This document shows positions 1,923-55,092 of a stretch of DNA of 55,092 nt, one piece after another. Source of the DNA: a virus (lineage: Duplodnaviria > Caudoviricetes). A program made the position numbers and the translations under genes. Numbering within the stretch: position 1 is the stretch's first letter; the number at the start of each line of letters is the position of its first letter. The DNA is taken from positions 1 through 55,092 of the IMG/VR virus record IMGVR_UViG_3300037882_003063. One strand, written 5' to 3'. The notes below the pieces were generated by a model that was given only the letters and a program-made list of their open reading frames with translations, searched no databases and had not been told where the DNA came from.

Positions 1923-4525
1923 TATCCATCCGCCTCTACAACTGTCAAGCCCCTCTTGTTATTTTCGGCTCGTGCGACCATTGTACTACTCTGCTGTTGC
2001 AATTGCTGTACAACTCTTTGCGGGTCAGAACCGTTAATTGTCACCTCAAAGTTATTTGTTTGGGCGTTAGAGTAGCTATTATTAGCGGCTGCCGTCTGCA
2101 TACTGTCAACCGAAGCCGCCGCGTTACCAATAGCGGTTACGTTCCCTGATATTGGGGCTTGGCTGAAAATACCAAGTGGGTTGAATCCGCCGCTAAACAA
2201 CTCTTTTAAGTGCTTACCAATAAATGAGTCTTCGACAGCCGAACCGATAGCGCCAAAAACATCACTGGCTATCTTGCCCATCTGACCAAAGAAGTCAGCA
2301 ACTTTCCCAATCCAATCAAAGAGCGTCATCATTACGATGATAACAGGCTCGACGGCTTGCCCGATTCCAGTGAACATATTCCCTAGGTCTTGGGCTATCA
2401 ATGCAGCAAACGAAGGGATAACTTGGGTGAGCATGAATTGAATAAATGGCGCGAAGATATTTCCCCAAAGCCAACCAACGACTTGCCCAATGACCTCAAA
2501 GCCGTGAGCCATGCCGTCAATAAGTGGTTGATTCTGTGTTATCCAGTTTGCTATGCCTTGAGATACCTCACCGAAAACACCACCGAAGATGCTAACGATT
2601 TGCATTGCCCCGTCAAAGACCCATCCAATGACCTCACCAAAGAAGGGTATGACGTTTTGGGATAACCAATCAAAGCTCTGAACGATAATCGGCACAACAT
2701 TGTTAGCGATAAACCCAACAAACTGCATCAGGGCGGGTACAGCATCAATCAACAGAACATCAATAATCGCTGAAAATGTCGGGTATAAGGCATCAAAGAG
2801 TGAACTGGCTACCCTGCCCCCCGCGTTCACAAGTTCAAAGAATGCGGGTACAACAGTCTCGAGGATAAAAGAGCCAACTTGTAACGCAACAGGGGCTATC
2901 TTTGAAAACGTTTCCCAAATTGCCTGACCAATAGGCATGAAGGCAACGCGAAGCCCCATAAGGGTTTGGACAGCAGCGCCTAGGCTCGTTACTATTGCCG
3001 CGCCAAGCTGCGCTAACTCAGGGCTGTTAAGAATCCCAACAATGGTCTGAGCAATCTCTTGGTAGTAGCTCGAGAGTGCAGCGAAGTCAAAACCTCCGAT
3101 GGTTTGGAATAAGCCATTGAATGCGCCCCCAACTGAATCAAAGAAACTTGTGAGGTCTATTCCTGAAAGAATATCAAAGATTGACTGTGCGAAGCCGCCC
3201 AGGGAATTTAAGGCGCTCGAGAAGTCTAGGCTCGAGAAAACACTGCCAACATAAAGCGCAAAGCCGCCTAGAGTGTTTAGGAAGCTCGAGAAGTCTAGGC
3301 TCGAGAAAACACTGCCAACATAAAGCGCAAAGCCGCCTAGAGTGTTTAGGAAGCTCGAGAAGTCCACTTTTGAGAGGCTGTCAGAAAAAAAACCAAGGGT
3401 TTTAACTGCGAAGTCTGCGAAATCACCGAGCATCTTCGAGAACGGGCTAAAGTCGGTTGATGCAATCAGTTTCGTGGCGAAACTTAATCCCTCCCATATA
3501 ACCTTAATCGTTGGGGCGATAAAGCCGTTATAGATTTTAGAAAAAGCCTTTCCGAATTCGACCAAGAACGGTATGCCGTTCGTGTACGCCCATTTCAGAG
3601 CCTTGGCTATGTCCTCACCCATCTCTGTTAAGTTTGCTCGAATGTTCAAAGCGGTTTTTGACAGTGAGCCGTCAGCAGTTATCAGGCTGTCACGAATATC
3701 CATCATGACCGTTTTTATAAACTCGAATGACGGTTCACCAATAATCTGCCGCCCCATGTCCATGAATTCCTGCATGGTCGAGGACAAACCCGCCCATGAG
3801 TTACCCTGTTCTTTAATCATGGTATCAGGCGCATACTTTTTCATGAATTCCATGACCATGCTTAAACGCTCAGGAGCGCCAAGGGCTTTGAATGCGTTAG
3901 TCCCGCCAATGTCCTCGACCATCTTGTTAAAGCCCCGTGTGTAAAGTTGAATGTCCATACCAACCTCACCACGGATAAGACGGGCTGCATCTCGAGCCGT
4001 TTGTGCAATGTCACCACCCATAAGGGTTGTGCCTACGCTCACAGCGCGGTTTGTGAATTCGGCAAACTTATCAAGCTCACCACCCGCCTGAGTGAACGCC
4101 CCAATGGTCGTCGCCGCAACCCCAAGGCGGTCATTAGTCGTCCCTGCCCCCACAAGCGCGTCTCTTCGGAACTGTTCAACAAGTTTGTTACTGATTAGCA
4201 TTGATTCATTAAACTTGTCTTGTTCATTTAGCAAACCACCACGGGCATTGCGAAGCTCGAGCGTGGCGTTTAGGAGTGAGGTCATCGTAAAAGTTTGCGC
4301 TTCAATCTGCGCGTTCACTTCAATACCAGAGCCTACAATGGCATCAAAAGCGCTCTTGACCCCATAAGCAATTGCTTGACTGGTATACATAACACTATTA
4401 AATTGTTGCGCCCCTCGAGCAATGGAGTCAAAAGCGCCTGAGAAACCACCAGCGCCAAGCCCCGTCATTGACTGGGTTAAATTTACTCCTACGTTCATGA
4501 TATTCATAGTTAAATTATACGCCAC
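1922..4525 (-). CDS. Tail tape measure protein
   Basis: 867 aa, Ala/Gly/Phe-rich amphipathic repeats, downstream of the tail chaperones. Confidence 0.9.
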   Translation of the reverse strand: MAYNLTMNIMNVGVNLTQSMTGLGAGGFSGAFDSIARGAQQFNSVMYTSQAIAYGVKSAFDAIVGSGIEVNAQIEAQTFTMTSLLNATLELRNARGGLLNEQDKFNESMLISNKLVEQFRRDALVGAGTTNDRLGVAATTIGAFTQAGGELDKFAEFTNRAVSVGTTLMGGDIAQTARDAARLIRGEVGMDIQLYTRGFNKMVEDIGGTNAFKALGAPERLSMVMEFMKKYAPDTMIKEQGNSWAGLSSTMQEFMDMGRQIIGEPSFEFIKTVMMDIRDSLITADGSLSKTALNIRANLTEMGEDIAKALKWAYTNGIPFLVEFGKAFSKIYNGFIAPTIKVIWEGLSFATKLIASTDFSPFSKMLGDFADFAVKTLGFFSDSLSKVDFSSFLNTLGGFALYVGSVFSSLDFSSFLNTLGGFALYVGSVFSSLDFSSALNSLGGFAQSIFDILSGIDLTSFFDSVGGAFNGLFQTIGGFDFAALSSYYQEIAQTIVGILNSPELAQLGAAIVTSLGAAVQTLMGLRVAFMPIGQAIWETFSKIAPVALQVGSFILETVVPAFFELVNAGGRVASSLFDALYPTFSAIIDVLLIDAVPALMQFVGFIANNVVPIIVQSFDWLSQNVIPFFGEVIGWVFDGAMQIVSIFGGVFGEVSQGIANWITQNQPLIDGMAHGFEVIGQVVGWLWGNIFAPFIQFMLTQVIPSFAALIAQDLGNMFTGIGQAVEPVIIVMMTLFDWIGKVADFFGQMGKIASDVFGAIGSAVEDSFIGKHLKELFSGGFNPLGIFSQAPISGNVTAIGNAAASVDSMQTAAANNSYSNAQTNNFEVTINGSDPQRVVQQLQQQSSTMVARAENNKRGLTVVEADG
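3216..3364. repeat. Perfect 69-bp tandem duplication in the tape measure gene
   Basis: Units start at 3216, 3285 and 3354 (partial), each beginning CTCGAG; encodes DFSSFLNTLGGFALYVGSVFSSL twice. Confidence 0.95.
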
Positions 4526-7846: not shown

Positions 7847-8536
7847 TTATTCAATAATAAGCAATTCTTGCTTATCAGTTAAAGTTACCACGGGGTAAGT
7901 GTCTAAATCTGGCATTGGTTCGCCAACACCGCCCGTCACCAAAGCGACTTCCTTGGCTGTGTTAGCCTCCACAAAACCGATACCGTCAAGGAGTGGGTAA
8001 GTGATAAGGTAGCGCAAAACAACATGAATCTGCGCCTGATACTCGAAAGAAGACGGGCTTCCAATCAGTTTCGTGACGAAACCACGACTGACACCATCAT
8101 GGATTAGACTTCGCTCCTCACGCTCAGCCCCAAGGACACCCATTAGCTTGCTTTGATTTCTGATGTAAAGACGGTTGACGCTTATTTTGCCGTGGCGTTG
8201 GGCAGCATCACGAGTTTCACGCAACACAAGATGCAGCTTTACCTCATGGTCTACATATTGAAGCATCTGTTCAATTATCAGAGTGCCTAACGTACTCGAG
8301 ACTTCGCGTTTTTCTCTTAAGTCTTTCGCTTGCCCTTCGCTTGGTAAGGGTACTTCAAAGTAATCAATCCCAACCCGAAGCGGGATTTTTTGCCCGTCTT
8401 GGTCAGGGTTCACCATGCCATACGTGACAATACGACCATTAAGCCCGTCTAATAAGTACCTGTCAGGCGGGTCAAACATATAAAGACCAGCCGCATAAAT
8501 ACGACTCTTGATAAAATCTAGGATACTTTCAAACAT
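7847..8536 (-). CDS. Putative tail terminator / neck protein
   Basis: Synteny only: last neck gene before the sheath. Confidence 0.5.
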   Translation of the reverse strand: MFESILDFIKSRIYAAGLYMFDPPDRYLLDGLNGRIVTYGMVNPDQDGQKIPLRVGIDYFEVPLPSEGQAKDLREKREVSSTLGTLIIEQMLQYVDHEVKLHLVLRETRDAAQRHGKISVNRLYIRNQSKLMGVLGAEREERSLIHDGVSRGFVTKLIGSPSSFEYQAQIHVVLRYLITYPLLDGIGFVEANTAKEVALVTGGVGEPMPDLDTYPVVTLTDKQELLIIE

Positions 8537-12311: not shown

Positions 12312-12313
12312 AT

Positions 12314-12602
12314 GTGCTACCTCCTTGGTAGTGAGTGCATAGTATCGTGCATTTTGGAGTTGTACTAGGGACATTTATCCCATACCTAATTTGACCTGCT
12401 TCTATGGGTTCAAAGGGTCAAGGGTAGTGCCTTTATACGCACCGTGAGCGCTTTTAAGCCTGCTTTGGGTCGTTCTGTGGCTCGAGTTACCAGAGCGCTA
12501 TATATAAGGGATTCTAGGCGATTCTAGGAGTCGGGACATTTATCACTGGTATACCTTTCTTGTGTATCGTTATGATGCACTCACTACCAAAGGAGGTAGC
12601 AC
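12314..12602. promoter_or_regulatory. Bidirectional promoter cassette A
   Basis: Inverted arms 12314-12340 and 12575-12602; leftward TAGTAC-17-TACTAT, rightward TATGAT; GGGACATTTATC boxes at 12368 and 12533. Confidence 0.85.
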
Positions 12603-12605
12603 CCC

Positions 12606-19952: not shown

Positions 19953-20292
19953 CTTTTGATTCTATTCGTCAGGCAAGGGCGACACTGCCATGTATCGGCT
20001 TTCGTTTAATGTGTCCTTTTTGACGGCTCGAGTCATCTCACCGTGCAATGGTGCTACACATCACGCGCCCGTGATAAGAGTGTATCCACGGCGATACTCA
20101 CGGCTTTAAGGTTCGTGACCTCCTCGAGCTATTTTCAAACCGCTCTGGTTTAATGCGCTTCTCAGCCCCGTAGCATTCGTCGGAGTAAAACGGTTTCGTG
20201 ACGAAACCCAAGTCAATATACACCAACCTCGAGTCTTGGGCTATACCCTAGCGTTCGCTGTAGTGGCTTTTAAGGTGTCTCGAGAGTGCGCC

Positions 20293-25477: not shown

Positions 25478-25480
25478 GGT

Positions 25481-25758
25481 GTGCTACCTCCTTGGTAGTG
25501 AGTGCAAGGTATCATGCAAAATACAAATAGACTAGGGACGTTTGTCTAGTAGTGACTTTTTGGCTTTTGGTCGTCTCATAACCCTGTCTTGTGAGTGCTG
25601 TGAGCGCTTATAAGGCTGTCCTAGGCTGTCTCATGGCTCGAGTTACCAGACAGCTATATATAAGGCATTGTGAGCCATTCTAGGAGTCGGGACATTTATC
25701 ACTGTTTTAGGCGTTGGGTGTATCGTTACAATGCACTCACTACCAAAGGAGGTAGCAC
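25481..25758. promoter_or_regulatory. Bidirectional promoter cassette B
   Basis: Inverted arms 25481-25506 and 25731-25758; leftward TAGTCT-17-TACCTT, rightward TACAAT; boxes at 25535 and 25689. Confidence 0.85.
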
Positions 25759-25759
25759 C

Positions 25760-26744: not shown

Positions 26745-27252
26745 AAAATTCGTTCGTGAAGAACTGGCTCACGCCCTGACTCCTAATACTTCGCTCGAGT
26801 TGTACCCATCAGGCGGTTTGTGGTACGTCTGCGATAACGCCCAAAGGCGTTTAACTCTTGTGTCGGGTTCTCTTCGTGACTGCTATCATTTTCTTTGTGG
26901 TTACGCCACGGGTATGCCCAAAGTTAAAAGAGAAGAAGATGAGCAAAGGAATCTTTTACTTCTTTTAATGCCACGGGTTTTGGTTAGGTCGGAGCATGGT
27001 GAAAGCATGAAACTCTTAAATGCTGCAACTGCCGCCCTCTGGTTCGGTTCGGATAGCACCGATGTATTTTTGCAGCCTCTTAAAAATATGGGTGAGTATA
27101 TAAAAATAAAAGGCTTGATTCAATACGAAATTGAGTTAGGTGCATACCCCGCCTACCCTCACCATGATTTTATTCGTTGCGGCAAAGACACAACGAAAGA
27201 GCAACGCTTAGCCCGACTCGAGTACATTCTAAGTAAATACGCCGTTTCGTGA
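26731..27252 (+). CDS. Hypothetical protein
   Basis: AAGGA RBS; the stop codon lies inside a 15-bp palindrome copy. Confidence 0.7.
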   Translation: MKITEKFVREELAHALTPNTSLELYPSGGLWYVCDNAQRRLTLVSGSLRDCYHFLCGYATGMPKVKREEDEQRNLLLLLMPRVLVRSEHGESMKLLNAATAALWFGSDSTDVFLQPLKNMGEYIKIKGLIQYEIELGAYPAYPHHDFIRCGKDTTKEQRLARLEYILSKYAVS

Positions 27253-27264
27253 CGAAACAAAAAC

Positions 27265-27296
27265 AAAACCCGTGCAAATAAATGCACGGGTTTTTT
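27265..27296. terminator. Bidirectional terminator
   Basis: AAAACCCGTGCA / TGCACGGGTTTT between convergent genes. Confidence 0.85.
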
Positions 27297-27341
27297 GACG
27301 GCTGCACGTCTAGGGCATCTTAGTCTTTGGTCGTGAGAATT

Positions 27342-27965
27342 CTATAACGTCTGCCTTGGTGGTACTGGGTTAAGTGTGAGCTTTGCACCCGTCACAGGGT
27401 CAGTTAAATCGCCCGTAACGCCTAGTCTTAGGATGTTTGCTGTGATTAAAACATCGTTAAGGCAATAACTTGTCAGTTCGGCGTGTTTGCCGTGCTGATA
27501 CATCATGGGGGCGTAGTGACCGCCGTTCCCTGTCTTCTCGAATCCGTTAGCTCGAGCGATTGAATCAACGTTGTAACCAGAGACGGTCTTGCCCTTCGTG
27601 AAGTTTGGCGGCTGACCGCTTGCAATTCTGACCTCTTGCAAGAGGTCGTAATCAGTCCAGACGTTTACGCCATGAAAACCCAAGACCTTATCATCAAAGC
27701 CCTTTGAGTTGAAGCCAACGATAGAGGCAGTCCCAAAGTCCTTTGGAATTTCAGACAAACGCTTTTCGTCATAAACTTCAAACTGAACGGGCGTGTAATG
27801 CTGGTCGAGCCAACAAGCAACAAGAATACTAAAACCCATTCCAGCGTAATCGCCCCAACTTGTGGCATATGACAAACCCGCTATCATCTCGCTAGGGTCA
27901 CGGGGCATAATCGGTCTTTTAATCTCGAGGTCGTAGACGACTATCGGCGCATTGAACTTATTCAT
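27342..27965 (-). CDS. DEDD-family 3'-5' exonuclease (RNase H-like)
   Basis: YDLEIK, VGFNSKGFD, YCLNDV motifs. Confidence 0.85.
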   Translation of the reverse strand: MNKFNAPIVVYDLEIKRPIMPRDPSEMIAGLSYATSWGDYAGMGFSILVACWLDQHYTPVQFEVYDEKRLSEIPKDFGTASIVGFNSKGFDDKVLGFHGVNVWTDYDLLQEVRIASGQPPNFTKGKTVSGYNVDSIARANGFEKTGNGGHYAPMMYQHGKHAELTSYCLNDVLITANILRLGVTGDLTDPVTGAKLTLNPVPPRQTL

Positions 27966-28228
27966 TTTTTAGCCTTACCTTGTCGCTTTCTGAGAGGCTT
28001 TATAACAGGCTTCGGAAGCAATTCTGGTGTTACTACCTTCAAAACGGGTTCAAGAGGCTTTACGACCCGTCTTGAGACCCATGCTGACAGCTTTTGGTCG
28101 AATGGTTTAACCCTGTATTCGTTCCCTCGAGTTTCCATGACCTGTGAGGGTATCTCACGGTAAACACTCCCGCCCTCGAGTTTCGGGATGTGTACGCACC
28201 AAAGAACGCTAATCATTTTCAGGCTCAC
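27962..28228 (-). CDS. Hypothetical protein
   Basis: Part of an overlapping chain; start uncertain. Confidence 0.5.
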   Translation of the reverse strand: MSLKMISVLWCVHIPKLEGGSVYREIPSQVMETRGNEYRVKPFDQKLSAWVSRRVVKPLEPVLKVVTPELLPKPVIKPLRKRQGKAKK

Positions 28229-28634
28229 TTAAGGCTAAGTGATTAAGGTTAATGTCACTCACGGGCGCAACAAGACGAACACCACTCGAGACCTTAACGG
28301 CAAAGTCAGCGCTAACTTTTTCCTCCATCAAGCTCAGGGCGGCTTTCGACTCACGCATAAACTCCTCGAGCGTTACGTGTTCACCGCCTGAATTTCTGAA
28401 TGGGGCTAAGCCTAAAACGTTATTTAGGATTTCTGCCACAGCCAAGGTCTCACGGTAATATGCGTTAAAGCTCTTATTGCCGTTTAGGACTTGGCTACGG
28501 CTTGCCAGTTGCTCCATTCGGAGCTTTTGGTCTGCAAAATGCTCTAAGAGTGCTTGGGCTACTCTCTTAACTTCTAGCGCTTCTTCGACTTCATTCATTG
28601 CTGTTTCAATCTCATTCGCCGTTACTGTCTTCAT
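28209..28634 (-). CDS. Hypothetical helical protein
   Basis: Overlaps the ParB-N gene stop. Confidence 0.6.
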   Translation of the reverse strand: MKTVTANEIETAMNEVEEALEVKRVAQALLEHFADQKLRMEQLASRSQVLNGNKSFNAYYRETLAVAEILNNVLGLAPFRNSGGEHVTLEEFMRESKAALSLMEEKVSADFAVKVSSGVRLVAPVSDINLNHLALSEPEND

Positions 28635-29436
28635 CGTTATCACCGTCCTCTAGCTCGAGCTTTGGGGCATCCGCTATTGTCGAGTCACCAAACTCTTTGC
28701 CGTCTTGAAAATTTTTGTGCATCAATGCAATCAGGTCAGGGGCGGCAAAAGCGCGGCTTGAATCTGGCAACCCTAAAGTTTCCATAAAGCTATCCTTGGC
28801 GGTCTTATCGGCGAAGGTCAGAATCAAGTAATGGTCTCGTGACTCCCCCGCTTGGTCAACTTCTAGGTATTCCTTTTTGCGGTCTTTAATTGCTTGAATC
28901 TGAGCGGCTGCTTTTGCTTCGTCAGCCTGTAGCCCTTGCGAGTCGGGTTCATCAGGGATACCAAACCCGTAAGTCTCAGCCCAGTCATCAATTTTGTCAG
29001 GAAACTCTAATTCAAGCTCGAGACGGTCAAAGCCAACTTCAAGAGGATTGACCCCATCATCAAAGATGTCAGCCAGTAACTCCAATTCGTATTGTCCTTG
29101 AAGGGCTGGATTATTGAGGATGATATTGATTTCCTTCTCTTCTTTTTCGGTCTTCTCAACCATTGACACGTCAAGAAGGTAATCAGGTGACTTCTCGAGC
29201 ATATCAAGAATCAAGACCCGTTGGTGACCACCCACAATGTTGCCCGTAGTCTTGTTCCATGTGACCGTGCCAACAAGACCGTGCTTTTCTATTGCCTCTC
29301 GCAACCTCTTACGGGCTGTCTCGTGAATCATTCGAGGGTTGTAAATCGCGTTCTTTAACTCGGAGCGGTGAACCCTAACGTTCTCGAATTTTTGGTAACG
29401 AGTTAGTTGCCCCTCCTTACTCTTAGCCTTAGCCAT
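28612..29436 (-). CDS. ParB/Srx N-terminal domain protein (IbrB-like)
   Basis: LKNAIYNPR, IEKHGLVGTVTWN, IVGGHQR; acidic C-terminus; no obvious HTH. Confidence 0.85.
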   Translation of the reverse strand: MAKAKSKEGQLTRYQKFENVRVHRSELKNAIYNPRMIHETARKRLREAIEKHGLVGTVTWNKTTGNIVGGHQRVLILDMLEKSPDYLLDVSMVEKTEKEEKEINIILNNPALQGQYELELLADIFDDGVNPLEVGFDRLELELEFPDKIDDWAETYGFGIPDEPDSQGLQADEAKAAAQIQAIKDRKKEYLEVDQAGESRDHYLILTFADKTAKDSFMETLGLPDSSRAFAAPDLIALMHKNFQDGKEFGDSTIADAPKLELEDGDNDEDSNGE

Positions 29437-30109
29437 TTTTTAACTCCATTTCATATTTTACTATTGCCGCTTCTGCGTAGGGATATTGCGCCAAAATTTT
29501 TATATAGTCATCTGGAAACCGTTTCCTTATTTCATATAACCAAGCTCCTTTTAATTGACCGCCCCATGATTCATAGTTCATTGTGTAATCAGGCGGCATG
29601 ATGATTCGAGCGTGTTGTAAGGTTGCCATAACGTCCCGATTGTTCCACTGTGCAAGCGGATAGAACCGACCACGCTTAGGGTCAATGCCCTCGCACTTAT
29701 TGACCATCCCTCGACGGTCAAGAGAATCAATCATCTTTTCGCCGCCCGTTGTCCAGTAAACGCCATAATGTTTTTTGACCACTGTCTCGAGGTCGCTAAA
29801 CCCGACACGGCTAATCAATGGGTTATTGGTCATGGGGCGGTACTCACCGTCAATCATTGAATCAAACCCGTCAGGATGGCGAAGCTGCAAAATGGGAGTA
29901 TCGAATTTTTTGCTCAGGTAATTAAGATACCTTTCGACGAATCCAATGCCCTCGACGGTGTAATAGTGATACCCGCAAACCTCAAAGCCAAACCGTTTGA
30001 GGATAACCAAGGCGGCTACGCTGTCCTTACCGCATGATATACCAAGGGCAACGCGCTTCACGCCTGTTGCTTTGAATCTTTTAATAACGTCAAGTTTCTG
30101 CTTATCCAT
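29429..30109 (-). CDS. PAPS-reductase-like PP-loop protein (IbrA/DndC-like fold)
   Basis: PP-loop ISCGKDS; GEKMIDSLDRR; FYPLAQW. Confidence 0.85.
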   Translation of the reverse strand: MDKQKLDVIKRFKATGVKRVALGISCGKDSVAALVILKRFGFEVCGYHYYTVEGIGFVERYLNYLSKKFDTPILQLRHPDGFDSMIDGEYRPMTNNPLISRVGFSDLETVVKKHYGVYWTTGGEKMIDSLDRRGMVNKCEGIDPKRGRFYPLAQWNNRDVMATLQHARIIMPPDYTMNYESWGGQLKGAWLYEIRKRFPDDYIKILAQYPYAEAAIVKYEMELKNG

Positions 30110-30177
30110 AGAAACCTGTTTCGTGACGAAACAAAAAAACACCAAAGCATAAAGCTCTGGTGTCTACTTGAAAAAAA

Positions 30178-30492
30178 CTAGCGTCTACGGGCTGAGCCGT
30201 CACGGTTGACACGACGACCAGTTTTGGCATTGGTGTACCCGCCGCCGTCACGTTTCGTAATGCCCCGACCAAGTTTGACACTGGCTTTCTTGACGGCTGC
30301 TGCACCTTTACCTTTGCCCTTGGCGGCTGCTTTGGCTTTAGGTGCTGGTAAAGCCTTGGGCTTAGCGGCTCTTGGTAAAGCCTTCGGCGCTGCCTTTTTA
30401 GCCCTGGCTGGTGCTTTCTTAGCTGCTGGTTTCTTAGCTGCTGGTTTCTTAGCTGCTGGTTTCTTAGCTGCTGGTTTCTTTTTGGCTGCCAT
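30178..30492 (-). CDS. Histone H1-like Lys/Ala/Pro-rich basic protein
   Basis: KKPAA x4 encoded by identical 15-bp repeats (~30415-30480); almost no acidic residues. Confidence 0.85.
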   Translation of the reverse strand: MAAKKKPAAKKPAAKKPAAKKPAAKKAPARAKKAAPKALPRAAKPKALPAPKAKAAAKGKGKGAAAVKKASVKLGRGITKRDGGGYTNAKTGRRVNRDGSARRR

Positions 30493-30553
30493 AATAAAAC
30501 CCCCTTTGCGGTCTCAAAGGATGTTATCACGCCAAAATGGAGTGTTTGAGGGT

Positions 30554-30769
30554 TCACCATTCCACCTCTAAGGCATCATGGATAATCTTGCCCCGTTCGG
30601 TTGTACTGAGTGCCATATAAGCGGCGAAAGCCTCATCACTAAGGCGAACCTGTACCAGTCGTGACGTGTTCTTTTGACGGTCAGGGTCATTGCCCCAACG
30701 AGCAAAAGCGGCTTGTCGTTTCATCTCGCTCAGTTCTGCACCTGATAATTTAATCTCACTTTTTGACAT
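30554..30769 (-). CDS. Putative ribbon-helix-helix DNA-binding protein
   Basis: LVQVRLSDEAF...GKIIHDAL; GAGGGG RBS. Confidence 0.55.
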   Translation of the reverse strand: MSKSEIKLSGAELSEMKRQAAFARWGNDPDRQKNTSRLVQVRLSDEAFAAYMALSTTERGKIIHDALEVEW

Positions 30770-31196
30770 CTGACCCCTCAATTAAACTCAAGTAAATAAA
30801 ATAATTGTGGCTAACATCATCAAGGGCGGCGCTTAGAATCATTTCCTCAAATTGGGAGGATAAAAATTCTTCTTCTGATTCCTCTTCGTAAGACCCACAA
30901 TCGAGCAGGGCATCAGAGATAAGCTCGAGCCAGTCATCCTCTTCTTGGGTCATCTCACGACTAGGGGCTTTGCTAAAGACTCCTTCTTCATGCAAAGCTA
31001 AAAGGCGCTTAATGTCAACCGTCACGACCTTTTCAACCCTAGCCTTGATTGTGATGGGCGCAGTCCTAGCACCGAATTGCAAGGTGGCAATATCGCCTTG
31101 CAAAACCTTTGAAAATATAGGCTTGTCGCGCTGTGTAGCGCGTTTTAAGCCGCTTCGGTACTCGCCTAGGTGTTTCATCCTATGGGTGATATTCAT
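30756..31196 (-). CDS. ASCH/PUA-like domain protein
   Basis: SGLKRATQR...GDIA resembles the GxKxxTxR motif. Confidence 0.55.
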   Translation of the reverse strand: MNITHRMKHLGEYRSGLKRATQRDKPIFSKVLQGDIATLQFGARTAPITIKARVEKVVTVDIKRLLALHEEGVFSKAPSREMTQEEDDWLELISDALLDCGSYEEESEEEFLSSQFEEMILSAALDDVSHNYFIYLSLIEGSDVKK

Positions 31197-31849
31197 GACT
31201 GTATAGTATCATGCAAGGGTGCGTTTGTGAAGTCCCCGAGTTTAACGAGTCCATAAGACTTCATGATTGTTCGTATAATCTCTTGAGTGTTGTATTCGTT
31301 ATCGTTGAATAAGCCTTTTTTAATCATCGCGTAAACTTCGTCTATTTGCTGCTGTTCGGGCGTGGGTACGCTTCGAGTCCCGACAGCAACAAAAACGGTT
31401 TGTAAGACTGCTTTGGTCTGACCCACAAGTGACCTATCATCAGGCATCACTGAACACATAAGCTCGATAGGGGCGAACTGTAAATAATTTATTTCTCTGT
31501 TTGAAACATGGTGAACCTCTTCACCGACTATTTTTATTTCGGGCGTGTAAAAGTATGCTTTGACGCGGGGCGTGTTCCAGTTCTTGACTATACGAAACTG
31601 ATGTTCGTGTAGCTCTGGTTTGAAATGGGCAACGAGTTTTGCGTCTGCGTGAATCTCGAGGAAGTGATGCCTACTTGAGCCATCAAACACAGGGCTGTCA
31701 TAGTGCATCTTGACGAGTGTCTGACCGTCAAAAAAATGTATCGTATCCACACTCCGCATAAGGAAACTTGGCTTGTCGGGACTTTGGGTGTGTTGGTAAT
31801 CGGAATCGGCAGAGTGGTTGGGCGCGACTTTTCTTATTACTGTTTGCAT
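31193..31849 (-). CDS. Hypothetical protein
   Basis: AAGGAG RBS preceded by a GGCTCGAG/CTCGAGCC hairpin. Confidence 0.7.
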   Translation of the reverse strand: MQTVIRKVAPNHSADSDYQHTQSPDKPSFLMRSVDTIHFFDGQTLVKMHYDSPVFDGSSRHHFLEIHADAKLVAHFKPELHEHQFRIVKNWNTPRVKAYFYTPEIKIVGEEVHHVSNREINYLQFAPIELMCSVMPDDRSLVGQTKAVLQTVFVAVGTRSVPTPEQQQIDEVYAMIKKGLFNDNEYNTQEIIRTIMKSYGLVKLGDFTNAPLHDTIQS

Positions 31850-31899
31850 AAAACTCCTTAAAAGGCTCGAGCGGTTAAGCTCGAGCCGTGTGAGTGGGC

Positions 31900-32580
31900 T
31901 TAGACTTCTTGTGCTTGGTACTTACTCGAGATGTGAGACCATGACTGAGCTTTGCCTTTTCCAGCAGGAACACCCGCGTAATACCATTTTTGTTTGTTGG
32001 GCGACCAACGCAGTTTAAGCAGACCTAGCGCTTCTTTGTGTTTTTTGGTTTCGCCACTGACCCAAAGCCAAGCATTGGCGCGTTCGACCACAAGACCGTC
32101 GAGGAGCTTAAGGGCGGCAACGATTTGTTGGATTTTGGCTTCTACTTCGTCAGTGATTTTTGTTGTGCTTTGACCCGCTTGGGCGGATGCTTTGCGCTTC
32201 TCGTGAGCTTCATCAGTCTGAGCTTCGGCTTGGGCGCGGCGCTGCTTGGCTTCTTCGGCGCGTTTTGCGGCTTCTTTAACCTGTTCGTCAAACCATGCGG
32301 AGTGTGACCGACTTTGGTCACGGGCGTTAGAGCTTTTAGCGTATTTTGAGTTGCTAAAAGTCATATATCGCGTTCTTGGGTAGTTGCCTTTGGCGATAGC
32401 CTCTTTGACAGCCTTATGAACCGCGTTAATGGCTTGCATAATTTTTTTGTTACCGTTGGGGCGGTCAGGATGCCAACGTTTTGCAAGTTCCCTAAATCTG
32501 GTGGCGCAGTCTTCGCCGTTTCTAATGCTCGAGAAGTATGTCCATGCGGTTTCGAGGGCTTGCTGTTCGGTGTGTGTCAT
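31900..32580 (-). CDS. J-domain (DnaJ-like) protein
   Basis: RFRELAKRWHPDR; C-terminal WLWVSGET..HKE.L....RWS..KQKWY domain; cassette RBS at 32580. Confidence 0.85.
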   Translation of the reverse strand: MTHTEQQALETAWTYFSSIRNGEDCATRFRELAKRWHPDRPNGNKKIMQAINAVHKAVKEAIAKGNYPRTRYMTFSNSKYAKSSNARDQSRSHSAWFDEQVKEAAKRAEEAKQRRAQAEAQTDEAHEKRKASAQAGQSTTKITDEVEAKIQQIVAALKLLDGLVVERANAWLWVSGETKKHKEALGLLKLRWSPNKQKWYYAGVPAGKGKAQSWSHISSKYQAQEV

Positions 32581-32582
32581 AT

Positions 32583-32871
32583 GTGCTACCTCCTTGGTAG
32601 TGAGTGCATTGTATAATGCAGAATTAAGGGAGTCTAGGGACATTTATCTCATACCTAATTTGACCTGTTTCTATGGGTTTAAGCCGACTTTTAACCCTGT
32701 CTTGTGAGTGCTGTGAGCGCTTATAAGGCTGTCCTAGGCTGTCTCATGGCTCGAGTTACCAGACAGCTATATATAAGACATTGTGAGCCATTCTAGGAGT
32801 CGGGACATTTATCACTGTTTTAGGCGTTGGGTGTATCGTTACAATGCACTCAATACCAAAGGAGGTAGCAC
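32583..32871. promoter_or_regulatory. Bidirectional promoter cassette C
   Basis: Inverted arms 32583-32609 and 32844-32871; leftward TAGACT-17-TACAAT, rightward TACAAT; boxes at 32637 and 32802. Confidence 0.85.
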
Positions 32872-32874
32872 CCA

Positions 32875-33219
32875 ATGAAAAACGTACCAGACAGCGCCCA
32901 AGCAATCGCCAAACAATGCCTGAGCAACCCCGCCCACTTAATTTTTTGCATCACCATCAACCCTAACTTTTTGAGAGCGAGCGCCCATAAGAGATTCCCT
33001 CGCTTGCTTGACTTGCGCTTGCTTGACTTGCTCCTCACAGCTAAAAGTGGAATGACTGGAATCCCAAGCCCCGACTACTGCAAAACAGTTCACGCCCTTT
33101 GCGACGAGTTGACCATCGGCGGTTTGCTCCTTATCTGTGCAATTCTGCTACAAAAAACGAACATCGAAACGGCTCGAGTCTTCGGTAAAGCCCATGCGAT
33201 TTGGGAGGGTAATTTATGA
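32875..33219 (+). CDS. Hypothetical protein
   Basis: Cassette RBS. Confidence 0.7.
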   Translation: MKNVPDSAQAIAKQCLSNPAHLIFCITINPNFLRASAHKRFPRLLDLRLLDLLLTAKSGMTGIPSPDYCKTVHALCDELTIGGLLLICAILLQKTNIETARVFGKAHAIWEGNL

Positions 33220-33447: not shown

Positions 33448-33475
33448 GCCCGTTACCTGTGCGGGTTATCACAGG
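33448..33475 (+). other. Intergenic pseudoknot-like element, copy 4
   Basis: GCCCG-tta-CCTGTG-CGGGT-tat-CACAGG, then the 15-bp palindrome and AAGGAG. Confidence 0.6.
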
Positions 33476-33504
33476 TTTCGTCACGAAACAAAAAGGAGCA
33501 ACTT

Positions 33505-37871: not shown

Positions 37872-39185
37872 CTAAAAAACTTTTACGGCATTGTCAGCAA
37901 ACGCCGCTCTTGACGCGACCCACTTAAGCCAGTGTGAACCCACAGCGCCCTCTCGTTGCTTGGCGATAATTATTTCTGCCAAAGTTGGGTCTTTTTCTTT
38001 GTTGTATTTACCCTCCCGATAAATAAAGGAAACTAAGTCAGCATCTTGACCTATTTGGCTTGCCTCTTTCAAATCCGACAGCATAGGGCGCGGGTCGGGT
38101 CGGCGTGATATTTCACGATTCAACTGACTCATGCAAATCATGACTATATTAAGCCGCATTGCGTATTCTTTGAGTTTCCTCGAGATATGAGAAACTTGCT
38201 GTGTCCGATTTTGCCCGAAGTCTTTTTGTGTCTCGAGCAGTTGTAAGTAATCCACTACACAAAACTGAATGTTGTTTCGTCGCTTAAGGGCTGATAGGCG
38301 CGGGTAAAGTGATTCGACAGTCAAGCCAACACCACCAATAATCTCGAGGGGCAACTGTGGAATTCTTGCATTCCACTCTCTTATTCTGGCTATATCTGCC
38401 TTCTCGTAACGCTGTTTCTTTATGTTCTCACTGTCAACTTTAGCCAGAATCGCCAACGAACGGGCATCAATCGCAGTACCACCCATCTCAAGGGTCACAA
38501 AAGCACCCGCATTGCCAAGCAGGGCATTGTTAAGAGCAATCTGCAAACCAAAAGAGGTCTTTCCCATAGAGGTATCACCAGCAATCACAGTGACGCTTTG
38601 GGGCATCATCGGCTCAAGAATGCCGCCGTCTAAGTCCCTGAACCCAGTTGTAATGCTACCAATTGGAAATTCATCTTTTGAGCGCAGGGCTGCATTTTCG
38701 TGGACTTTGCCTAAGAATGCGCCTAGCCTCCATTGGTCAGCTTTTTTGAGTTCAACTGTTTCCACTGCGTTTTGTAGAATCTGACCCCATACCTCATCAC
38801 CTGTTTTGTTGTCCTCTTGTGAGAGGTTCAACACGGTAGCAGCGAAACGCATAGCTTCACGTTTTTTGTGTGCATCCAAAACGATTTGGGCATAAAAATC
38901 AATGTAAACACTTATCGGGACTGATAAACCAACAAGCCAAGCCATACCGCCAACTTCCTCGAGATGGTGAGTCTTGTTCAACTCAAAGGGCAGTGTCACC
39001 ATGTCAATCGGCTCGTTACGCTCGAAAAGTCTAAGCATGGCGGCGTATGTTTTTCTGTGCCTATCAATGTAAAAACATTCTGCTTTTAATGTGGTTACAA
39101 CAAGCAGGAGGCTGTCATTATCAATCAGGATAGAAGCAATAACGCTTTCCTCAGCGTTTATGTTGTGAGGGGACGTGTATTCCAT
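37872..39185 (-). CDS. dnaB: Replicative DNA helicase
   Basis: AEESVIASIL, Walker A AGDTSMGKT, VVDYLQL, SQLNRE, RPMLSDLKE, IIAKQREG; TAATG-coupled to the initiator. Confidence 0.95.
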   Translation of the reverse strand: MEYTSPHNINAEESVIASILIDNDSLLLVVTTLKAECFYIDRHRKTYAAMLRLFERNEPIDMVTLPFELNKTHHLEEVGGMAWLVGLSVPISVYIDFYAQIVLDAHKKREAMRFAATVLNLSQEDNKTGDEVWGQILQNAVETVELKKADQWRLGAFLGKVHENAALRSKDEFPIGSITTGFRDLDGGILEPMMPQSVTVIAGDTSMGKTSFGLQIALNNALLGNAGAFVTLEMGGTAIDARSLAILAKVDSENIKKQRYEKADIARIREWNARIPQLPLEIIGGVGLTVESLYPRLSALKRRNNIQFCVVDYLQLLETQKDFGQNRTQQVSHISRKLKEYAMRLNIVMICMSQLNREISRRPDPRPMLSDLKEASQIGQDADLVSFIYREGKYNKEKDPTLAEIIIAKQREGAVGSHWLKWVASRAAFADNAVKVF

Positions 39186-40105
39186 TACGATAACCTCTGC
39201 CATTCACTGGCTTCTTGAAGGGTAAAAATTGCCTTGGGCGGGTCTTGTTTGTATGCCGACTTAAACGCCTCAACATCAATATGTATCTCGTTGCCAACGC
39301 TATCCACTTTTATAATCTCGACCCGCCTACCCCCTCGAGTTAAATAAACACCACACAAAAGCAATGAATCGTTTCGTTTCGTGACGAAACTACTTTTCCA
39401 AGACGGGAAGCGGTCAATAATTAGGGCGGGAGTTACAAAGCCAAGTTTGATACCTTGCTCCTCAAGAATCCATTTGAAGTAGGGCTTTATATCCTCCTCC
39501 TTGCAACCTATTTCAATGAGGGTTTTAACGGTCTTGCCGATACGGGCTTTCATGTTAGGCGGGACTTGTGCATCAGGTGTTTTATAAAGCTCGAGCCAAA
39601 TTGCATCGTAAATTCTTTGGTGAAGACTTACGGGCTTCGTTTCGTCCTCGACGAAAGAATTTTCTAAATCAGTATTTTCTAAATCAGTATTTACTAGCGT
39701 CTCGTTTACCGAAGTCGGTTTACCCGAAGTCGGTTTACCCGAAGTCGGTTTACCCGAAGTCGGTTTAACGCTACTTTTAGGGGGTAATATGCTCACTTCT
39801 CTGACTATGGTTTCATAGCCAAGCATCTTGCCATTACTCGAGCGCCGCTCACCCCTTGAGGCATAGCCAAACTCGATTAACTCATTCATGGCGTTACTCA
39901 CACCCGTATAACCATCACCGCGAGCCTTAGAATCGGTTTTTCTATCACGGGCTATCGCTCTAAGGTTTACCTCCCAGTGGTCAGGTTTGGATAGCAACCA
40001 AAGCAGCAACCCAAGGGCAGAAAAGCTAAGTCTGCTATCCGTGATTGCGCTATTGCTCATGACTGTGTAAGTGTCTTTGCCGCGCTCTTTCCTTAAAATA
40101 CCCAT
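39185..40105 (-). CDS. Replication initiator (HTH, lambda O-like arrangement)
   Basis: YTVMSN..ITDSRLSFSALGLLLWLLSKPDHW; internal iterons; upstream of dnaB. Confidence 0.85.
   Translation of the reverse strand: MGILRKERGKDTYTVMSNSAITDSRLSFSALGLLLWLLSKPDHWEVNLRAIARDRKTDSKARGDGYTGVSNAMNELIEFGYASRGERRSSNGKMLGYETIVREVSILPPKSSVKPTSGKPTSGKPTSGKPTSVNETLVNTDLENTDLENSFVEDETKPVSLHQRIYDAIWLELYKTPDAQVPPNMKARIGKTVKTLIEIGCKEEDIKPYFKWILEEQGIKLGFVTPALIIDRFPSWKSSFVTKRNDSLLLCGVYLTRGGRRVEIIKVDSVGNEIHIDVEAFKSAYKQDPPKAIFTLQEASEWQRLS
39660..39767. repeat. Putative replication origin: four 15-bp iterons plus two AT-rich 15-mers
   Basis: CCGAAGTCGGTTTA(C) x4 (39709-39767) and TTTTCTAAATCAGTA x2 (39660-39689) inside the initiator gene. 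Confidence 0.75.
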
Positions 40106-54283: not shown

Positions 54284-54297
54284 AAAACTCCGTTTCG

Positions 54298-55092
54298 TCA
54301 CGAAACAATTGTGTTTCGACACAGGGTAATGCTCATGTCAAACCCGCTTTCGGCGCTTATGTTGCCGCCTATCTCACGAATAATATACAGCCCTTTAACC
54401 TTATCGGGTACTCGAGCGCCTTGGAGTTGAATCTCTTCGCCCACGAAAATGCTTGGTAGCCCGTGCATACTGACCGTCACGACCTGAAACTTCAACTGTT
54501 GCAAAGCAAGGGACTCTAAGGCTTTACGTTTAGCGTCAAGGGTCGAGGTTGAGCCGCCCGTAACAATGCGTTTGACTTTACCAGAGCCGTAACCGTTAGC
54601 GATTAGCTCACTTACTTTTTTAGAAGCGAAGTTTGCCGCTCCATCAGCAACGCCCGTGCTTGGCTTGGTCGGCGCTTGTGTGGCTGTGACGGTTGCACTT
54701 ACGCCACTTGATACAAGGTTGCCCCCAACGTTTTGAGTGACCGTTTTTGGTTTTGGTGTATCAGTAACCCTCACTTCGTCAGCTAAGTCCTCTGGTTTTG
54801 CAATAACAGTGAATCGCCTACCGCCCTCGATTCCAGTTACAACGACCTCACTGGGAATTTCATACAAGGAGCTTCTGACCGAAAGTTTGCCTACGTTAGA
54901 AGCGACATTTTCAATCAAGCCACTTACATTCTTAGCCCGAAACTCACCGTAAACCAATAGGGCGCGTGGTCGTTTGCCTATTTCAATACCAGCACCAATA
55001 AAAATTTCTGACCCGTCTCGAGTTTCCGTTACAACGTAACCAATTTCTTTGGCAAGTTTAACTAAAAAAGTCCAGTCGTCTTGCCCTGTTTG
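54298..55092 (-). CDS. Baseplate hub protein, 3' part (continues from 1299..1)
   Basis: C-terminal GLPSIFVGEEIQL...GLYII..I...GF pattern; same frame across the overlap. Confidence 0.85.
   Translation of the reverse strand, partial: QTGQDDWTFLVKLAKEIGYVVTETRDGSEIFIGAGIEIGKRPRALLVYGEFRAKNVSGLIENVASNVGKLSVRSSLYEIPSEVVVTGIEGGRRFTVIAKPEDLADEVRVTDTPKPKTVTQNVGGNLVSSGVSATVTATQAPTKPSTGVADGAANFASKKVSELIANGYGSGKVKRIVTGGSTSTLDAKRKALESLALQQLKFQVVTVSMHGLPSIFVGEEIQLQGARVPDKVKGLYIIREIGGNISAESGFDMSITLCRNTIVS

Follow-up and report, generated by a model that had tools for sequence, protein, structure and literature searches.

The complete virus record IMGVR_UViG_3300037882_003063 of IMG/VR (55,092 bp, with direct terminal repeats of 99 bp; its full length is called the window here) carries neighboring genes for a PP-loop ATP pyrophosphatase of the phosphoadenosine phosphosulfate (PAPS) reductase family and for a protein with a ParB-type N-terminal domain (ParB-N). 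Our data demonstrate that this PP-loop/ParB-N pair is a mobile, conserved, and widespread phage cassette which usually opens the packaging region, and that in most relatives it is preceded by a small basic protein with an exact Gly-Gly end (GG-tailed mini-protein), which appears to be an unrecognized third component of the known pair. In the window, a Lys/Ala/Pro-rich, histone H1-like protein stands in the slot of this small partner, and the window is thus an atypical variant of the cassette. What was known is the IbrA/IbrB-like pair; what is new is the GG-tailed component of the relatives, whose three-gene cassette is a stronger lead than the H1-like protein itself. We know of no chemistry for pairs of PAPS-reductase-like and ParB-like proteins, which are annotated in many phages and prophages.

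A preliminary description of this DNA had grouped the H1-like, PP-loop (SCGKDS), and ParB-N genes in one module. The minus strand indeed carries the three genes in succession, at the positions it gave or adjacent to them:

30178–30492, minus strand: 104-amino acid (aa) Lys/Ala/Pro-rich H1-like protein with four KKPAA repeats
29429–30109, minus strand: PAPS-reductase-family PP-loop ATP pyrophosphatase of 226 aa with the motif SCGKDS; the ATG at 30109 is the likely start
28612–29436, minus strand: ParB-N/Srx-fold protein of 274 aa with NPR and GGHQR motifs and an acidic tail

A PP-loop/ParB-N cassette at the head of phage packaging regions

We compared 82 related loci, namely the best 80 of 176 confirmed viral relatives (10-sequence PP-loop profile) together with L003 and L004, which are the only two of the 20 loci obtained in a scan with the ParB-N query that also hold a PP-loop gene. 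The ParB-N gene starts no more than 100 nucleotides (nt) 3′ of the PP-loop gene in 69 of the 82 loci, lies within 1 kb in five, is found elsewhere in three, and is absent from five, in agreement with the earlier statement that such pairs occur in phages. The PP-loop and ParB-N genes are translationally coupled, the ParB-N start of the window overlapping the PP-loop stop by 8 nt. The first downstream open reading frame (ORF) of at least 350 aa, available in 74 loci, matched Terminase_6N in 31, Terminase_3 in 19, TerL_ATPase in 3, and GpA_ATPase in 2 (counts can overlap). Among cultured phages, Riemerella phage RAP44 (NC_019490) has annotated PP-loop and ParB-like genes directly before terS/terL/portal, and the PP-loop gene of Lactobacillus phage LR1 and of Pasteurella phage Pm86, followed by ‘nuclease’ or hypothetical genes, has the same place.

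This location raises the possibility, in our view an unlikely one, that the pair is a packaging or regulatory accessory, with ParB-N loading at or near pac/cos or the pair activating late genes, and with the small protein being co-packaged or serving as a nucleic acid chaperone. Such a role would fit the place of the cassette directly before terS/terL in cultured phages and the presence of several different terminase families downstream in related loci, and IbrA/IbrB are reported to activate prophage eib genes, a regulatory phenotype that Sandt and colleagues are said to have described in 2002. However, the intact and conserved PP-loop ATP-pyrophosphatase site points to chemistry over mere binding, and the window cassette is about 5 kb from the terminase genes. 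In addition, many DNA-modifying genes, for example those of ParB-N proteins matching methyltransferase models, occupy the pre-terminase position too, so that position alone does not discriminate.

A GG-tailed small protein precedes the PP-loop gene in most relatives

The basic protein of the window had been expected to have counterparts upstream of homologous enzymes, and this proved correct in part. A same-strand ORF of 20–160 aa with a net charge per residue of at least 0.10 and Gly as its last residue is found at the PP-loop start in 58 of the 82 loci, against 17 of 545 (3.1%) for the same test on the 5′ side of other genes (≥150 aa) from these loci, but the partner revealed is an Arg-rich protein ending in ...GGxGG and not an H1-like one. 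The 80 viral loci behind this count are not independent and fall into 41 clusters at 70% identity, 26 of which carry the G-ending ORF; the window locus stands outside it, the ORF that passes there being a spurious one in an alternative frame. Because ‘basic’ alone is true of 278 of the 545 controls, the Gly terminus is the discriminating feature.

Relative to the PP-loop start, the stop codon of the small ORF falls in the range –19 to +103 nt, and in most loci in the range –19 to +7. The 58 ORFs encode 51 distinct sequences with a median of 56 aa (size range ~40–90 aa) and the consensus MA..IQRRINRTTGV...RRxARNxFRRKSxGGxGG; 46 of the 51 end in GG, the commonest tails being GGSGG, GGKGG, GGMGG, GGTGG, and GGAGG, and their composition is rich in Arg (15.8%), Gly (15.4%), and Ala (12.7%). 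Between relatives, nucleotide differences number 388, 318, and 657 at codon positions 1, 2, and 3, respectively, with synonymous changes in 375 codons, and this third-position excess is as expected of a translated gene. In L054, the small ORF has a strong Shine-Dalgarno sequence and the TTG start of the PP-loop gene comes one base after its stop codon. The small ORF also goes together with ParB-N, being found in 57 of the 74 loci with a downstream ParB-N gene and in 1 of the 8 without.

Database searches say little about the small protein. A meaningful Pfam or PHROG match was found for 0 of 32 proteins (31 small ORFs of related loci and the H1-like protein of the window), the best ESM Atlas score for a canonical small protein was 0.77 to an unnamed cluster, which is uninformative, and its 37 database homologs, which include prophage proteins of Simonsiella muelleri, [Pasteurella] mairii, and a Eubacterium metagenome-assembled genome, are all labeled ‘hypothetical’. 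In the searchable text of the literature we found no mention of a GG-tailed small protein leading an IbrA/IbrB-type pair or standing beside it, and the supplements of PMC12704722 and PMC12839542 could list such neighborhoods.

Several loci depart from the simple three-gene layout. In RAP44 (L106, 3845–3979), an unannotated 44-aa basic ORF, similar to that of L096, lies directly 5′ of the PAPS-reductase-family gene; routine annotation therefore misses small partner genes. L080 has the GG-tailed gene in two tandem copies of 70 and 63 aa (1300–1512 and 1519–1710) before one PP-loop gene. A second small basic ORF, Lys-rich and 47 aa long, lies directly 5′ of the GG-tailed ORF in L047 (5678–5821) and also in L049 and L050, and contains in L047 the motif ..PQKQAVAIALHKAG.. 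Finally, in P0178, a single 121-aa sequence from a 1.6-kb contig, a GG-tailed small protein runs in frame into a PP-loop fragment, which could be a natural fusion or a one-base sequencing error in the G-rich tail. Ten PP-loop proteins with N-terminal extensions (279–363 aa) were also considered as possible fusions with the small protein; their extensions are heterogeneous and perhaps the result of mis-called starts.

A PP-loop enzyme family without conserved cysteines

The PP-loop protein of the window matches PHROG 424 ‘PAPS reductase’ (2.3e-12) over positions 147–358 of 460 and, with its 226 aa, is a short, stand-alone form without the extra regions of long IbrA-like proteins. It falls under the Pfam gathering threshold for PF01507 (E=0.008, 16.6 bits, threshold 22.5) and far under the cut-off of the NCBIfam equivalog (16.8 bits vs 154); its homologs P0002 (54% identity to the window enzyme, on a 1.9-kb contig) and P0003 carry PF01507 in precomputed annotation. 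The family is large: a profile built from the window protein and the two relatives closest to it matches 1500 cluster representatives at E≤1e-3, of which 258 reach E≤1e-30, and almost all measure 210–300 aa. As for close relatives, a word-index search gave two besides the window’s own, a viral scan with the single window protein gave none, a metagenome scan gave one 1.9-kb contig without usable upstream sequence, and a genome-contig scan with a generic pattern gave at least one locus.

In an alignment of 60 family sequences, S25 and G27 of the PP-loop motif S25-C-G-K-D-S30 are invariant and K28 and D29 at least 90% conserved, G123, D128, S129, R132, P151, and W155 are likewise invariant or nearly so, and D201 and P210 are conserved as well, with no cysteine among the invariant or near-invariant columns. 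The AlphaFold 2 (AF2) model (predicted local distance difference test [pLDDT] 96.4) has a Rossmann-like adenine nucleotide alpha-hydrolase fold, with Foldseek matches to TtuA (1.2e-7), TilS (1.8e-6), NcsA (2.5e-6), LarE (2.2e-5), CysH (7.3e-5), and APS reductase (1.9e-4). In a profile search of PDB sequences with the family, the best match was CysD (2.6e-7), and the titles of the PDB entries matched by Foldseek include ‘TtuA in complex with Sulfur Carrier TtuB’ and ‘Cap9-CdnD complex containing NDG modification’. On the strength of sequence and model, we class the window enzyme as a predicted ATP pyrophosphatase of the PAPS-reductase branch which would lack the cysteines needed for CysH-type or DndC-type chemistry; neither chemistry is expected, because no cysteine is conserved in the family.

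The same alignment bears on the view that the PP-loop gene is an auxiliary sulfur-metabolism gene encoding a true PAPS reductase. The source annotations read ‘phosphoadenosine phosphosulfate reductase’, and the protein is genuinely similar to CysH, APS reductase, and CysD in fold and profile. However, CysH proper has a catalytic cysteine at its C-terminus and zero cysteines are conserved across the PP-loop family, the Pfam and NCBIfam cut-offs are missed as described above, and an obligate ParB-N neighbor and a pre-terminase position are ill-suited to metabolism. We have therefore rejected a role in sulfur metabolism on the missing cysteines, and consider it hardly credible.

An NTP-binding-type ParB-N partner

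The ParB-N protein gave no Pfam match at E≤0.01 and matched PHROG 9353 (5.5e-49) and PHROG 620 ‘ParB-like’ (1.3e-19). Its AF2 model has a pLDDT of 82.9 overall and of 90–98 over residues 11–150, and Foldseek aligns it with CTP-bound ParB (ParB-CTPgammaS, 7.7e-6) and also with Noc, PadC, and KorB, sulfiredoxin being a weaker match (1e-2). These structural matches span about 145 columns in the N-domain region only; the C-terminal half is helical at low to medium model confidence and ends in the acidic tail. The nucleoside triphosphate (NTP)-binding motifs N33-P34-R35 and G70-H71-Q72-R73 are conserved in 41 relatives, among which R24, P34, N61, G70, H71, and R73 are invariant. Through the shared N-domain, the protein also matches PHROG 498 ‘DNA methyltransferase’ (5.9e-18) and the PADLOC model MTase_II (1.6e-9).

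The H1-like protein in the slot of the small partner

In the window, the H1-like gene takes the position of the small ORF: it lies on the same strand immediately 5′ of the PP-loop gene, 68 nt before the ATG, and its product has a net charge of +34. None of the 859 ORFs of the window is a canonical GG-tailed one (no match of the family hidden Markov model below E=1), and the H1-like gene is therefore the only candidate for the slot. Four 15-nt tandem repeats (30407–30481) encode the KKPAA units, and by the genome’s own codon usage the frame scores +0.21 per codon vs –0.13 and –0.43 for the other frames. The protein shares Lys/Ala/Pro-rich pentapeptide repeats and a very high positive charge with histone H1-like, AlgP, and Hc2-type KPAA-repeat proteins, but this likeness is one of composition only, as judged from a low-complexity match to Pfam HC2 (PF07382; E=0.0049) that does not reach the threshold (17.4 bits vs a cut-off of 40).

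In other deep-branching loci of the PP-loop tree (L003, L032, and L027), a small basic ORF likewise lies upstream, in a Lys-rich instead of an Arg-rich version. L003, whose ParB-N is the closest to that of the window (51% identity), has a K/P/A-rich upstream ORF of 74 aa ending in AG. The upstream ORF of L032 has N-terminal KKAAKK repeats, ends in SG 103 nt from the PP-loop start, and shows a weak match to the N-terminal motif of the small-protein family, and the small basic ORF upstream in L027 ends in QG.

The signals and remaining genes around the module are as follows:

30554–30781, minus strand: 75-aa ORF, 5′ of the basic protein gene and outside the conserved module
30137–30165, minus strand: intrinsic-terminator-like hairpin of 12 pairs followed by a T run, directly 3′ of the H1-like stop codon
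30118–30132, strand not assigned: one copy of the 15-bp palindrome GTTTCGTSACGAAAC, 8 nt before the PP-loop ATG
28209–28643, minus strand: 144-aa ORF with uncertain start, in the same transcription unit as the PP-loop gene
27962–28228, minus strand: 88-aa ORF in the PP-loop transcription unit, with a weak coding score (0.007)
27342–27965, minus strand: DEDDy-type 3′–5′ exonuclease of 207 aa, final gene of the PP-loop unit and third after ParB-N
27242–27294, minus strand: terminator-like hairpin (27294–27265) with a palindrome copy (27244–27258), closing the PP-loop-to-exonuclease unit

The 68-nt gap between the H1-like gene end and the PP-loop ATG is thus filled by the hairpin (30165–30137) and then the palindrome (30132–30118), with the ATG 8 nt further on, and the terminator-then-palindrome layout is repeated 3′ of the exonuclease gene (27294–27242). 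The preliminary description had linked the palindrome to the PP-loop gene. It does stand 8 nt from the ATG but is not specific to this gene, as the genome has 19 copies of GTTTCGTSACGAAAC at no more than one mismatch (0.02 expected), at sites including 8068–8082, 20193–20207, 27244–27258, 30118–30132, 33475–33489, and 54292–54306. The palindrome precedes gene starts by about 8–15 nt and is probably an operator or promoter-associated site at transcription-unit boundaries, the copy at 30118–30132 probably marking the start of a unit. Because terminator/palindrome pairs flank them, the genes from PP-loop and ParB-N through the 144-aa and 88-aa ORFs to the exonuclease seem to form a single transcription unit, and the H1-like gene, separated from the PP-loop gene by hairpin and palindrome, looks like the end of the preceding one. 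A weaker hairpin with a T-rich stretch is found in the gap that separates the 75-aa ORF from the H1-like start (30502–30521, minus strand), so that the H1-like gene has a hairpin at either end.

The reading that we favor, while giving it a little less than an even chance, is that a cysteine-less adenylating PP-loop enzyme and an NTP-binding ParB-N protein may act on DNA with a basic small-protein partner. Many of our observations weigh against it. The step to DNA is one of analogy only, with DndB/DndC, with ParB-N-methyltransferase fusions, and with the packaging-gene position. In addition to the redundancy of the loci surveyed, the G-ending ORF is missing in 24 of the 82, the cassettes of Pm86, LR1, and L004 have no small basic ORF, and the small basic ORFs of RAP44 and L096–L098 are not G-ending. 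As to the window, its PP-loop protein forms a long branch of the PP-loop tree that falls outside the core GG clade, and its H1-like protein ends in ...ARRR with no Gly and no INRTTG motif. For the latter, no homology to the GG-tailed family could be detected (hhalign probability 0.08%), BLASTP against the L003 or L032 ORFs gave no significant match, and its C-terminal 47 residues have no homolog in a large protein database. With the whole protein as query, a viral scan gave 592 pattern stretches, of which tblastn confirmed 0. Viral contigs commonly contain KKPAA-type repeats (at least 119 stretches), and a PP-loop family gene was found in 0 of 80 fetched viral loci with KKPAAKKPAAKK-coding repeats (708 kb). 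Canonical cassettes are translationally coupled (~20 nt), and in the window a strong terminator-like hairpin and the palindrome split the H1-like gene from the PP-loop gene. A conserved linkage of an H1-like protein with the enzymes is not supported by these results.

Much of this would be expected if the H1-like protein were unrelated to the cassette, that is, an independent nucleoid-associated, DNA-condensing, or host-takeover protein that ends the preceding unit, the pair working without a small partner. We take this as a serious possibility, if still short of probable. The hairpin and palindrome between the genes, the missing homology and Gly terminus, the 0 of 80 repeat loci with a PP-loop gene, and the Pm86, LR1, and L004 cassettes all speak for it. 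However, the same slot holds a small, strongly basic protein in most relatives, and the window offers no other candidate partner. L032 has the only other H1-like KAP-rich-repeat small ORF in the 82 loci, and it likewise lies directly 5′ of the PP-loop gene. L003, with the closest ParB-N, has a K/P/A-rich basic ORF in the slot. Taken together, we give about even odds that the H1-like protein is a functional partner of the enzyme pair. The idea of a histone-like shield is thus tempered for this phage: by position the protein may be a partner, and neither its sequence nor the operon structure ties it to the enzymes.

Models for the action of the cassette

Under the reading that the pair may act on DNA with a basic partner, the cassette would be expressed late and act on phage DNA around the time of packaging. 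ParB-N would bind nucleotide and DNA and position or gate the PP-loop enzyme, which would spend ATP on adenylating a nucleic acid group or, where the cassette is canonical, the carboxylate at the terminal glycine of the basic protein bound to DNA. An adenylated carboxylate would be ready to be transferred, amidated, or thiocarboxylated. The H1-like protein of the window, should it be part of the module at all, would act as a DNA-coating or condensing partner and not as a GG-type substrate.

Carboxylates are adenylated by several PP-loop enzymes, including NAD synthetase, LarE, and QueC, an exact C-terminal GG is a hallmark of carboxylate activation in ubiquitin-like carriers, and the active site of TtuA takes in the Gly-Gly tail of its carrier TtuB. 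Because of the exact GG end and the TtuA/TtuB precedent, adenylation of the terminal glycine of the small protein would be the most economical model for canonical cassettes. It cannot hold as such for the window, because the H1-like protein has no Gly terminus. In its fullest form, which we regard as quite unlikely, this model would make the canonical cassette a new phage conjugation or marking system: the PP-loop enzyme would adenylate a DNA-bound mini-protein (...RRKSxGGxGG), disordered and Arg-rich, at its terminal glycine, to be followed, just before packaging, by ParB-N-controlled transfer to DNA or another target, or by formation of a thiocarboxylate or amide, and the H1-like protein would be a lineage-specific replacement that keeps the DNA-coating role only. 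The logic would be like that of ubiquitin-like GG-tail activation, but with a non-E1 enzyme and a nucleic-acid-bound substrate.

The preliminary description had gone further for the window and suggested that the adenylating enzyme could have the H1-like protein itself as its substrate, which would be covalently modified or linked to DNA as a shield against restriction or CRISPR. The conserved, exact ...GG end of the canonical small proteins does suggest a substrate or carrier, and proteins or carboxylates can be substrates of PP-loop enzymes, as the PDB titles cited above illustrate. However, the window protein is without the Gly-Gly terminus that motivates the idea, has no motif in common with the GG family, and is not co-translated with the enzyme. 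As for a shield, PADLOC gave only weak matches, one to SspD at the N-terminus of the enzyme (E=0.0011, residues 21–87 only) and that of ParB-N to MTase_II, and nothing ties the module to evasion of restriction or CRISPR. We therefore consider this role of the H1-like protein very improbable.

Among known systems, the IbrA/IbrB-type pairs are the nearest, having like the window a PP-loop PAPS-reductase-family gene beside a ParB-N gene on a phage, and they are annotated in cultured phages. The TtuA-TtuB and Ncs6-Urm1 systems give the best structural match of the PP-loop model and likewise combine a PP-loop enzyme with a GG-ended small protein. TtuB and Urm1 are folded beta-grasp proteins and TtuA has Zn fingers and an Fe-S cluster, whereas the small protein of the cassette is disordered and Arg-rich, its enzyme has no conserved Cys, and the basic protein of the window has no GG. 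DndE is a small basic DNA-binding protein, and the cast of DndB/DndC/DndE matches ours by analogy, DndB being a member of the ParB superfamily and DndC a PAPS-reductase-like PP-loop ATP pyrophosphatase. In contrast to DndC and SspD, the window family has no conserved Cys, so that Fe-S or Cys-dyad sulfur chemistry is not expected; no DndA- or DndD-like genes were seen nearby, and six neighboring proteins gave no further Dnd/Ssp match in PADLOC.

In the literature, ‘IbrA, IbrB/ParBc’ are listed on viral scaffolds (PMC4490671), and DndB and DndC are described as proteins of DNA phosphorothioation (PMC10853773). ParB-N-methyltransferase fusions, described as enriched in prophages (PMC12704722), have the N-domain in common with the window ParB-N, which is by contrast a separate protein with a PP-loop enzyme as partner; the words ‘PAPS’ and ‘phosphoadenosine’ do not occur in the main text of that paper.

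A translationally coupled mini-protein with an exact Gly-Gly end turns an anonymous gene pair into a directly testable system. If the small protein is a substrate or carrier, the cassette would represent a new phage route of protein or nucleic acid modification, and such a role would be relevant to anti-restriction strategies and DNA packaging.

The phage and its other genes

The window encodes the large terminase, portal, major head protein, tape measure, baseplate wedge, and DnaB-like helicase of a tailed phage. Its TerL relatives, in Methanoculleus, Rhizobium, and Pseudomonas phages, are all below 33% identity, blastn of positions 27000–33000 gave no nucleotide match to cultured phages, and Rfam and tRNA scans of the window gave no match.

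The 144-aa ORF, the 88-aa ORF, and the exonuclease have no counterpart in the related PP-loop loci and are not conserved with the module. The exonuclease, which had been called a DEDD enzyme lying three genes beyond ParB-N, is correctly so described: DxE, NxxxFD, and YxxxD motifs are visible in its sequence, and it matches Pfam DNA_pol_B_exo2 (PF10108) at 1.1e-4, just under the cut-off. The label ‘RHH-like’ (for ribbon-helix-helix) given to the 75-aa ORF is unverified, with zero matches in Pfam, PHROG, NCBIfam, and PDB sequences, and this ORF has no homolog among 100 related loci. The sole other gene of the neighborhood that recurs within a few kb of the cassette (L029, L030, L031, L036, and L061) encodes a 247-aa protein (31900–32643, minus strand) with a J-domain-like HPD motif, which matches PHROG 15863 at 4.7e-17 and Pfam DnaJ below the cut-off (E=0.0011).

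Three further kinds of repeat were seen in the window. A region of ~290 nt is present in three copies of 72–95% identity (12313–12603, 25480–25759, and 32582–32872), each bearing at either end ribosome-binding sites that face outward, such as AAGGAGGTAGCACCCAATG at 32859; the copies have no Rfam match and look like a triplicated divergent promoter or leader region. Tandem repeats of 15 nt (about 5 copies, 39694–39767) lie within a 306-aa gene (39185–40105), and three copies of a 69-nt repeat (3189–3375) lie within the tape-measure gene.

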